In this document: in pieces, positions 3,889 to 5,363 of the stretch
Position numbering within the stretch: position 1 is the first letter of the stretch
Layout: every line of letters begins with the position of its first letter
Origin: a virus
Taxonomy: Duplodnaviria; Heunggongvirae; Uroviricota; Caudoviricetes
Virus record (IMG/VR): IMGVR_UViG_2913123054_000002
Coordinates: 1 to 5,363 of that record
Length of the DNA stretch: 5,363 nucleotides
Direction: 5' to 3' (one strand)
Program-made: the position numbers and the translations under genes
Notes under the pieces: generated by a model
The model's database searches: none
What the model was told of the DNA's origin: nothing
The model's input: only the letters and a program-made list of their open reading frames with translations

Positions 3889-4560
3889 ATGACTGAATTA
3901 ACCAAAGAACAATTAGTCGAAGAAGCTAAATTAAAAATAGCGATTGCGAAATGCCACCCAAATTCAGGGATGGCACAGGTAGAGGGTGAGTTATTCAAAA
4001 TTGCACTGGCATCACTGGAAGCAGAGCCAGTGGCGTGGAAGGCAACCTTCACGCAAATTGATAATGAATATAATACGTTCACTGCTCTGTATTCTGACAA
4101 AGCAGAAGCCGAACGGTGGGTGCAACTGCATGAAATAGGTGACTTTCGGGCAGAAATAACACCGCTTTACGCAGCGCCGCCAGCGATGGTAGTGCCTGAT
4201 GAAATGGATTTGCTTACCTGTCATCTCGACGGTGTAACTGAAACATATGCTGATGGCTGGAACGCCTGCCGCGTCGCCATGCTTCAGGCCGGAAACTTTC
4301 GGGAAAATAAGAATTCGTCAACCAACTCTCCGGGAACTCCGGCTGGCTGGGTAAGCTGTAGTGATGCAGTTCCTGCGGAATACTGCGATGTGATTCTTCG
4401 CGATGATCTCGGGAATGTATTCCCCGGTTCCTGGGATAAGGTTTTTTGCCCCATTCGTGGCGGGAATAAGATGGCTTTTGTGGACAAAGACGGCATCGAA
4501 GTAGGGAGCTCAACTCACTGGATGCCGCTACCGGAACCACCGCAGGAGGTGAATCAATGA
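3889..4560 (+). CDS. DUF551-like prophage protein (223 aa)
   Basis: ATG at 3889 with AAGGAAGG (3876-3883) at 5-nt spacing; the track start at 3799 overlaps the previous gene. The C-terminal region (GWVSCSDAVPAEY…SSTHWMPLPEPPQ) matches the W…HWMPLPEPP signature I recall for DUF551 proteins in enterobacterial prophages; not verified by search. Confidence 0.75.
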   Translation: MTELTKEQLVEEAKLKIAIAKCHPNSGMAQVEGELFKIALASLEAEPVAWKATFTQIDNEYNTFTALYSDKAEAERWVQLHEIGDFRAEITPLYAAPPAMVVPDEMDLLTCHLDGVTETYADGWNACRVAMLQAGNFRENKNSSTNSPGTPAGWVSCSDAVPAEYCDVILRDDLGNVFPGSWDKVFCPIRGGNKMAFVDKDGIEVGSSTHWMPLPEPPQEVNQ

Positions 4561-4640
4561 CCTGGCCTGAGGCATTCACCACGGTAGGAATCGCAATGGC
4601 GGTGGCACTGGTTGTGTATTCGATTTGCCGCTGGGGATAA
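4557..4640 (+). CDS. 27-aa hydrophobic micro-protein (MTWPEAFTTVGIAMAVALVVYSICRWG), absent from the ORF track
   Basis: ATG at 4557-4559 overlaps the upstream stop (ATGA). A perfect SD AGGAGGT (4544-4550) sits at 6-nt spacing. One predicted transmembrane-like segment. The stop TAA at 4638-4640 lies 17 nt before the terminator stem. Confidence 0.45.
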   Translation: MTWPEAFTTVGIAMAVALVVYSICRWG

Positions 4641-4657
4641 AAACTGTCAAATAGAAA

Positions 4658-4676
4658 AGCCCCGATAGCCGGGGCT
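4658..4676. terminator. Bidirectional rho-independent terminator (AGCCCCG-ATAGC-CGGGGCT)
   Basis: 7-bp GC-rich stem with a 5-nt loop. On the minus strand it is followed by TTTTCTATTT, a strong U-tract. On the plus strand it is preceded by AAAA and followed by AAATTTAT, a weaker one. It sits between convergent genes ending at 4640 (+) and 4685 (-). Confidence 0.7.
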
Positions 4677-4684
4677 AAATTTAT

Positions 4685-4840
4685 CTACGATTCACATTTT
4701 GTGCATTTTGGAATTGGGAAGGCTTTTGCTTTCACTGGGTATACGCGTTTTCCTGATTCATCGTGATAGAAGCGACGGAACAAAATTTCGCAAGGTTCTC
4801 CACATTTACTGCATATTTTTTTATTAACAGTCTTTTCCAT
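4685..4840 (-). CDS. Small zinc-ribbon protein (51 aa, MEKTVNKKICSKCGEPCEILFRRFYHDESGKRVYPVKAKAFPIPKCTKCES), absent from the ORF track
   Basis: Reverse-strand ATG at 4840-4838 with AGGA 8 nt upstream; stop TAG at 4687-4685, immediately before the terminator, whose strong U-tract is on this strand. Two CxxC pairs (C10/C13 and C46/C49) are typical of a zinc ribbon. It is convergent to the upstream operon and lies in AT-richer DNA. Confidence 0.6.
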   Translation of the reverse strand: MEKTVNKKICSKCGEPCEILFRRFYHDESGKRVYPVKAKAFPIPKCTKCES

Positions 4841-5014
4841 AAAAGAGTTCCTGTATAAAAACACAAACTGTATTCCTGTTCAGTATTGCGTTTATCTACA
4901 GACCTGATACCCTTGCACATGTCTTTTCTGTGTGCTAAAGGGTGTCAGATCATTACGATCAACCTCCTTATCAATCACACTAGTTGCGATGCTGTAACAT
5001 CACAATCTCTATAG

Positions 5015-5052
5015 CCCCTTGCATCTTGAGTTTTCAGGACAAGGGGTTTTCT
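5015..5052 (+). terminator. Terminator-like extended hairpin followed by TTTTCT on the plus strand; alternatively a structured element in the minus-strand leader
   Basis: CCCCTTG (5015-5021) pairs with CAAGGGG (5040-5046). An inner stem TCTTGA (5024-5029) pairs with TCAGGA (5034-5039), including one G-U pair, around a GTTT loop. TTTTCT follows at 5047-5052. No U-tract follows on the minus strand. Confidence 0.4.
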
Positions 5053-5327
5053 ATGCTCATAACCGAGACCATCTGATCCTGGCGTAAACAAGCCCGTGGT
5101 GCAACCCCTTGCAAGCATGTAACTCATTGAAAAATGATCATTTTATCTGTTGACACGGAATAACAAACTGTCATTGTGCGGCTATGGCAAGTGGCAAATG
5201 CTTATAAATCATATGGATATAAATAGTACAGAAAGAGTTGTTTTCTCTAGGATATGAGTATGCGTCTAATGCTGATTGGTTGAATTTTGTTCTTGTTTTA
5301 AAGGGTAAGAGTTTAAAGTGTTGGCAG

Positions 5328-5363
5328 TGATGTATTGGATAGTTAGAATTGCTGCGGGTGCTT
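5328..5363 (+). CDS. Possible 5' end of a plus-strand gene running off the window (…VLAVMYWIVRIAAGA…)
   Basis: This is the only frame open from 5319 to the window end. Candidate starts are GTG 5328 and ATG 5340, with a weak GAG/AAGGG upstream. Only 12 codons are visible, so this is very tentative. Confidence 0.2.

Follow-up and report, generated by a model that had tools for sequence, protein, structure and literature searches.

Lambdoid phages carry Rho-independent terminators in their nin region, those of lambda being tR2-tR4. The hok/sok type I toxin-antitoxin system, which neighbours the DNA described here, is covered in Rfam by the sok model RF01794. Phages also contain morons, which are independent promoter-gene-terminator insertions (cited in PMC4104026), and the anti-sRNAs AgvB and AsxR, which are 51-60 nt long with a conserved 3′ portion of ~42 nt, are located downstream of Q/PR′ (Tree et al. 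2014, PMC4104026). Lambda bar minigenes, finally, read AUG AUA UAA (PMC8012679).

We analysed a stretch of 5,363 nucleotides of prophage DNA, referred to as the window, in which three hairpins (H1, H2 and H3) had been described as related through a shared word, CCCTTGCA. The original prediction offered three roles for them, namely iterated operator sites for a dimeric DNA-binding protein, structural RNA modules in a long 5′ leader, and a small repeated element. On balance, we lean towards a plainer explanation, in which one ordinary terminator (H2), one stable hairpin (H1) and one short palindrome (H3) were joined by modular exchange. On this view, positions 4900-5115 would be a non-coding spacer of the nin region assembled as a patchwork. 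For the most part the finding is ordinary, and as it stands it matters little; if correct, it would illustrate that a striking repeated word can stem from a terminator, an unrelated hairpin and a palindrome set side by side by recombination.

Comparison with described systems places each component close to something familiar. H2 resembles the nin terminators in that it is a G+C-rich hairpin with a U-run directly behind it, on the strand that carries early rightward transcription, and in its location, with the replication genes on one side and a Q-type antiterminator gene on the other. It differs from them in its interrupted 13-bp stem and in having only 4 consecutive U residues; moreover, it occupies a rare swappable cassette instead of a conserved phage position. 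The cassette itself is moron-like, with a small opposite-strand accessory gene, its own terminator and a probable promoter and operator of its own, and it is swapped as a unit between otherwise similar prophages, but unlike morons it contains an extra 170 nt of structured non-coding DNA (H1, hairpin 4984-5005 and H2). The hok/sok locus is the immediate neighbour, but the three hairpins, 240-450 nt farther upstream, fall outside the Rfam model, and other hok loci are without these hairpins.

Prophage setting

The window comes from a Rac-like lambdoid Escherichia coli prophage and covers part of its nin region; among database sequences, a prophage of E. coli A30, accession NZ_CP028745, matches it best. 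The plus-strand genes of the window comprise those for a DnaC-like loader (148-894), DUF1627 and DUF977 proteins, several small ORFs, and genes for DUF4014 and DUF551 proteins, and beyond the window the A30 prophage continues with hokD, DUF1367, YbcO and a Q-like antiterminator. The hairpin region (4900-5115) sits between a minus-strand zinc-ribbon gene and the plus-strand hok/sok locus, within ~480 nt of non-coding DNA that extends from the zinc-ribbon ORF to the hok promoter (Table 1). The start of the sok model (111.5 bits) falls at position 6794 of the A30 locus L001, which corresponds to the window position given in Table 1, and the hokD coding sequence annotated in A30 lies 141 nt past the window end. 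Farther on, downstream of hokD, the Rfam model of the Hfq-binding sRNA isrK matches L001 7106-7187 weakly (30.5 bits, with a gathering threshold of 50; E = 0.004). A tRNA scan of the window detected no tRNA genes.

Table 1. Coordinates of features in and around the hairpin region (window numbering)
Feature	Position	Strand	Description
27-codon ORF	4557-4640		Precedes the bidirectional terminator hairpin
Exchangeable cassette	4637-5073		437 bp; holds the left terminator, zinc-ribbon gene, H1, hairpin 4984-5005 and H2
Bidirectional terminator hairpin	4658-4676		Left cassette end; followed on the minus strand by UUUUCUAUU
Zinc-ribbon gene	4685-4840	-	51 aa; ATG at 4840, stop at 4687-4685
LexA-box-like site	4866-4885		AACTGTATTCCTGTTCAGTA (CTG-N10-CAG); 26-45 nt upstream of the zinc-ribbon ATG, directly left of H1
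H1, long imperfect hairpin	4901-4951	+	GACCUGAUACCCUUGCACA : UGUGC-UA-AAGGGUGUCAGAUC; holds copy 1 of CCCTTGCA
Fourth hairpin/palindrome	4984-5005		TTG(C/T)GATG-CTGTAA-CATCACAA; absent from the original prediction
H2, candidate Rho-independent terminator	stem 5015-5046, U-tract 5047-5054	+	U-tract UUUUCUAU; holds copy 2 of CCCTTGCA
H3, palindrome	5100-5113		TGCAA-CCCC-TTGCA, in a conserved 45-nt patch; holds copy 3 of CCCTTGCA
hok promoter	5321-5349	+	TTGGCA-17-TAGAAT (promoter scan)
hok/sok element	from 5356	+	The window (to 5363) holds its first 8 nt

H1 and H2 belong to a rare exchangeable cassette

The mosaic structure of this region is directly visible in the comparison of homologous loci. 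At 97-99% identity, the block 4557-5363 is intact in A30 and in 22 contigs whose zinc-ribbon protein is identical to that of the window. About 118 complete E. coli genomes and 15 viral contigs retain the flanks (4557-4636 and 5074-5363) at ~92-94% identity, and in place of 4637-5073 they have a different cassette, in which a minus-strand KilA-N gene is accompanied by a terminator of its own. With 4865-5120 as the query, a sensitive blastn search of 5426 complete E. coli genomes recovered one place in one genome, and no match was obtained in phage and plasmid collections. Similarly, the exact linker pattern was not matched in viral contigs, and searches via the zinc-ribbon protein in viral, genome and metagenome collections yielded no divergent copy of the cassette.

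These distributions refute the proposed small repeated element: beyond the single genomic occurrence and the empty phage and plasmid searches, no further copies of the hairpins were found, and within homologous loci the word is confined to these three sites. REP-, ERIC- and MITE-like elements were likewise rejected, the likeness among the units being only 8-9 nt plus a few bases, with no genome-wide copies. Of modest practical interest is that the comparison defines a rare, exchangeable cassette beside a hok/sok locus.

The minus-strand terminator at 4658 (4676-4650) faces outward and ends the zinc-ribbon transcript, and together with H2 it brackets the cassette; in the explanation we favour, H2 would close the right end, with this second, oppositely facing terminator at the left. 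The two terminator tails (4651-4662 and 5043-5054) share GGGG(C)UUUUCUAU and thus form a 12-nt inverted repeat (11/12) bracketing the cassette, which may be a coincidence, as no target-site duplication is visible.

H2 as a candidate terminator

The predicted fold of H2, in which CCCCUUG pairs with CAAGGGG around an inner UCUUGA/UCAGGA stem, was confirmed. The stem comprises 13 bp (7 + 6) with a CA bulge, has a folding energy of -18.9 kcal/mol on the plus strand (z = -4.8), and forms with a pair probability of ~1 in context. On the minus strand it is weaker (-13.5 kcal/mol), because one inner pair is G-U there. The run UUUUCUAU, which had been overlooked, lies directly 3′ of H2 on the plus strand, and the minus-strand hairpin leads into CUAUAGAG, which contains no U run. 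H2 is therefore a candidate plus-strand Rho-independent terminator, and since it has this intrinsic-terminator anatomy, the previously suggested short plus-strand RNA ending at 5052 is the claim that survives best. Nascent RNA would fold into the H2 stem, after which UUUUCUAU would allow RNA polymerase to be released, ending rightward transcription.

We infer that H2 truly terminates transcription, and likewise which transcripts exist. No credible plus-strand promoter or gene was found within the cassette, the best candidate (TTGCGT-16-TACCCT, 6.7 bits) being in the null range; as there is no convincing plus-strand sigma-70 promoter, H2 would presumably act on read-through from the early operon past the weaker plus-strand terminator at 4658. 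A simple terminator scanner left H2 unlisted because its interrupted stem exceeds the loop limit of that program, and a structure-based DNA pattern of H2 matched only unrelated generic terminators in the viral contigs. A role in insulating hok is weakened by the finding that other hok loci have no plus-strand terminator just upstream; protecting hok is not a general need.

H1 and the overall fold of the cassette RNA

H1 is a real and very stable predicted hairpin. It folds as had been described but extends further (4901-4951 instead of 4910-4942), and it does so on both strands, with -25.4 kcal/mol on the plus strand (z = -5.1; 0/200 shuffles as good) and -23.0 kcal/mol on the minus strand (z = -4.7). 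In context its pair probability is 1.0, and it forms with a probability of ~1 on either strand. H1 was found only in the window and 11 near-identical loci, and no U-run follows the hairpin on either strand. Located just outside the zinc-ribbon promoter and the LexA-like box, it would be expected to form on whichever transcript crosses it. A nut site, with boxA upstream of a boxB hairpin, was considered and rejected, as no boxA-like sequence (YGCTCTTTA) was found in 4600-5363 at up to 1 mismatch.

The fourth hairpin (4984-5005) has -9.7 kcal/mol on the minus strand (z = -3.8) and -6.3 kcal/mol on the plus strand in the variant of the window; all other loci carry T at 4987, which makes the stem a perfect 8 bp. 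The homologous loci, 11 in number and all at 97% identity or more, are too alike for covariation to bear on RNA function either way. Five stem transitions occur among them, each of which keeps a wobble pair on one strand only, three for the plus strand and two for the minus strand. At E ≤ 1, Rfam gave no match in 4640-5355; the sole match of the window at that threshold, asX2 on the 4658 terminator, was judged spurious.

Of the proposed leader modules, what stands is that H1 and H2 are hairpins of RNA grade; they do not form a family of modules, and alternative pairings among the repeated segments are negligible, with probabilities of 0.0 on the plus strand and 0.042 on the minus strand for H2b:H3 and 0.0 for H1b:H2a. 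A multi-segment attenuator was rejected on these values. Leader-peptide attenuation by the plus-strand ORF 4886-5014, which ends 1 nt before H2, was also rejected, the ORF having no Shine-Dalgarno sequence and no family match.

The structure of the plus strand raises the alternative that H1, hairpin 4984-5005 and H2 together constitute an unannotated plus-strand prophage sRNA of ~130-150 nt ending at H2, which we regard as unlikely. The order of elements is typical of sRNAs, a 5′ hairpin being followed by an open linker, then a small hairpin and finally a terminator, and the plus strand of 4890-5130 is strongly structured (z = -4.55; 0/200 shuffles), but no credible plus-strand promoter was found to start such an RNA, and the U-tail, with only 4 consecutive U residues, would be poor for Hfq. 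Outward-facing terminators at both cassette ends are as expected for two divergent units, and the RNA would possibly be co-regulated with the divergent zinc-ribbon gene via the LexA-like box. The linker (4952-4983), with its anti-Shine-Dalgarno sequence ACCUCCUUA, would pair with targets, as could the CA-rich 4996-5005. The latter, AACAUCACAA, is perfectly complementary to GcvB nt 65-74, the R1 seed, a match equalled in 9/500 shuffles; however, it was sought post hoc and lies within a paired arm of the 4984-5005 hairpin. When the putative sRNA was paired with the zinc-ribbon and hok mRNAs in RNAduplex, the predicted duplexes spanned the whole length and were uninformative. Prophage sRNAs are common in E. 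coli (PMC4104026). The candidate here has no Rfam match and no conservation beyond one near-clonal lineage.

A possible short prophage RNA that ends in a terminator and is complementary to the GcvB R1 seed over a CA-rich stretch recalls AgvB and AsxR. Nevertheless, the position here is in the nin region, the would-be RNA would be ~150 nt long and no promoter was found; the sequence bears no likeness to these anti-sRNAs, including their conserved 3′ 42 nt, and they map downstream of Q. Membership of that family was rejected on the differing position and on the 933W AsxR terminator (GCCCGA...UCGGGCUUUUUU), which is unrelated to H2. A more specific proposal, that 4901-5054 is an undescribed SOS-linked sRNA divergent from the zinc-ribbon gene and ending at H2, appears quite improbable. 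In such an RNA, the ACCUCCUUA linker and the GcvB-complementary stretch could sponge a host sRNA or mask ribosome-binding sites, and the CCCUUGCA/CAAGGG repeats could be part of its folding or processing logic. If 4901-5054 were indeed an expressed sRNA, it would be a prophage riboregulator at a position, between the replication genes and hok, where none is known so far.

H3 is a palindrome in a separately inherited module

H3 had been presented as the third hairpin of the family, but its 5-bp stem (-4.7 kcal/mol, z = -0.2) is no more stable than shuffled sequence, 69/200 shuffles folding as well, and it does not hold up as a meaningful hairpin. It lies outside the cassette, with a high-identity junction at ~5099. 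Its core is not conserved. Eighteen loci have CGCCTTGCA in place of the word at H3, and one, L024, has CCCCTTACA. All 18 KilA-N-lineage loci read TGCAACGCCTTGCA (18/18), with the centre CGCC and both arms kept, so that the 8-mer is missing in that lineage, and L024, which belongs to the zinc-ribbon lineage, has TTACA at H3, with the arms broken. The full match to CCCTTGCA at H3 rests on a single base that differs between the lineages, in which ~8% of positions differ anyway.

Arms that are kept around a varying centre fit a DNA palindrome better than an RNA hairpin, and H3, if functional, would be a protein-binding site rather than a structured RNA. In the preferred explanation it would be a 5+5-bp DNA palindrome in a promoter-region module inherited separately from the cassette. 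The patch around H3 adjoins candidate divergent promoters, TTGACA-16-CATTGT on the plus strand and TTGTTA-15-TAAAAT on the minus strand, both of which score within the shuffled range. The H3 pattern was not matched in species-representative genomes. A sigma-54 promoter (TGG...TTGCA at H3) was rejected: the spacing is GG-N11-GC against the required GG-N10-GC, and the sister lineage lacks the GG.

The minus-strand promoter candidate leads to another reading, in which the hairpins form a long structured minus-strand leader that tunes translation or stability of the zinc-ribbon mRNA. Transcription would start at ~5133 in the shared module, and the mRNA would pass through H3, H2, hairpin 4984-5005, a Shine-Dalgarno sequence with a two-codon minigene, and H1 before reaching the zinc-ribbon gene. 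We consider this distinctly unlikely. The candidate promoter is kept in both lineages and presumably serves KilA-N in the sister lineage; with only 72 nt between the shared module and the start of the KilA-N gene, that module must contain the KilA-N promoter. The score of the candidate (9.0 bits) nonetheless falls within the shuffled range, and the zinc-ribbon gene seems to own a promoter-proximal LexA-like box, like its homologues. Segments reading CAAGGGG / CCCCUUG / CAAGGGG / CCCUU / CAAGGG alternate on the minus strand in an attenuator-like manner, yet the alternative pairings among them are negligible at the values given above. H2 has no U-tract on the minus strand, and hence no termination decision would be made there; the minus strand is also less structured overall (z = -2.56), and the ORFs across the hairpins have no family match. 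The minigene counts in favour of a leader in that a perfect 9-nt Shine-Dalgarno sequence, UAAGGAGGU, precedes AUG AUC UGA by 9 nt, and the coding bases of this minigene form the base of H1.

Taken by itself, minus-strand 4945-4970 contains UAAGGAGGU and AUG AUC UGA, a two-codon Met-Ile minigene. On the plus strand, the same bases read GAUCAACCUCCUUA, which is close to the 3′ end of 16S rRNA. The minigene resembles the AUG AUA UAA minigenes of lambda bar (PMC8012679).

Another minus-strand ORF (4978-5127) runs through H3 and H2 from an ATG at 5127 that is common to both lineages. The ORF spans 50 aa here, compared with 29 aa in the KilA-N lineage (MSY(M/I)LAR...; L002 ~3955-4041), has neither a ribosome-binding site nor a family match, and is probably not coding. 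The A+T-rich stretch 5166-5320, upstream of the hok promoter, is near-identical in the zinc-ribbon and KilA-N lineages. It shows no RNA structure on either strand (z = +0.3 and +1.5), its ORFs have no family match, and both the divergent minus-strand gene and hok may be regulated through this shared DNA.

The shared word does not define a repeated module

The three copies of CCCTTGCA were confirmed at 4910-4917, 5016-5023 and 5106-5113, all on the plus strand, with spacings of 106 and 90 bp (~105 and 90 in the original prediction). The word is found nowhere else in the window or in 12.8 kb of the A30 prophage. None of 200 shuffles contained three copies of CCCTTGCA itself, but this figure overstates the case, because some 8-mer occurred three times within 210 nt in 51/1000 shuffles of the whole window (5%) and in 22/2000 shuffles of 4641-5363 (~1%). 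Against a reading by chance, such a clustered triple is still unusual, at ~1% of non-coding shuffles, and the word opens the 5′ arm of a strong hairpin in both H1 and H2. Beyond the core, pairwise local alignment of the three units is marginal (p = 0.04-0.10), and the shared bases play differing roles, GCA pairing with UGC in H1 and CA forming a bulge in H2. H1 and H2 lie in a rare cassette and H3 in a different, shared module; the copies therefore have no common history. We conclude that the shared CCCTTGCA probably reflects similar G+C-rich stem starts together with chance, and no repeated functional module. What had been observed thus holds for the word, H1 and H2 and is weak for H3, and the kinship of the three as a hairpin family is unsupported.

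The clustering could also be read as a DNA word for one regulator, CCCTTGCA (or TGCAAGGG on the opposite strand), whose three sites organise divergent promoters. Three exact, same-orientation copies within 204 bp and none elsewhere in the 12.8-kb prophage, with a clustering p of ~0.01 for the non-coding region, are what such a regulator might leave, and the arms TGCAA/TTGCA of H3 are kept in both lineages around a varying centre, as at a dimer-binding palindrome. We nevertheless judge this very improbable. Conservation of the word fails at H3 (CGCC in 18 loci, TTACA in L024), and upstream of zinc-ribbon homologues the word is absent; the 106- and 90-bp spacings are out of helical phase, and the long H1 and H2 hairpins around the word would be needless for a simple operator. 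The sole cassette-specific candidate regulator is the 51-aa zinc-ribbon protein, whose AlphaFold model (pLDDT 62) is too poor to judge this and too poor for a fold search. Iterated operators for the neighbouring zinc-ribbon and winged-helix proteins consequently found no support, for no CCCTTGCA hairpins were detected upstream of six homologous zinc-ribbon genes. Only H3, taken singly, looks like a protein-binding palindrome.

A zinc-ribbon gene family with LexA-like boxes

The ORF left of H1, which PGAP leaves unannotated in A30, belongs to a real gene family, as shown by 9 protein clusters with invariant C-x2-C...C and F-I-P-x-C motifs. Members are found in prophage nin and SOS-accessory regions: homologues in other prophages follow an XRE/ImmA pair beside hok, Rem and DUF1367, or adjoin umuDC and dinI, and in Klebsiella phages the gene lies beside umuDC or dinI, both with canonical LexA boxes. 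The site AACTGTATTCCTGTTCAGTA scores 15.1 bits with a matrix built from a set of LexA sites, the best score in the window and one reached by 1.7% of shuffles. At the same relative position upstream of the zinc-ribbon gene, homologues have CTGT-N8-ACAG; the palindrome-bearing loci are L051 (1651-1845), L052 (2447-2634), L053 (2072-2261) and L059 (1960-2153). Judged by these motifs, the zinc-ribbon gene is probably an SOS-controlled accessory gene, one of a small family, probably under SOS control, whose members usually escape genome annotation.

The homologues also share a conserved non-coding element upstream, which has no Rfam match and is absent from the window. It reads GGTGTGTATGGAG-N6-8-CCACCGCTACAC ... 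TTGAC(A/G) ... TAGCGGTTCTC(C/T)(C/T)AACAA, followed by CTGT-N8-ACAG, and is located at 1910-2075 in L053 and 1860-1965 in L059, with equivalents in L051/L060 and L052. Within it lie mutually complementary CCGCTA and TAGCGG segments.
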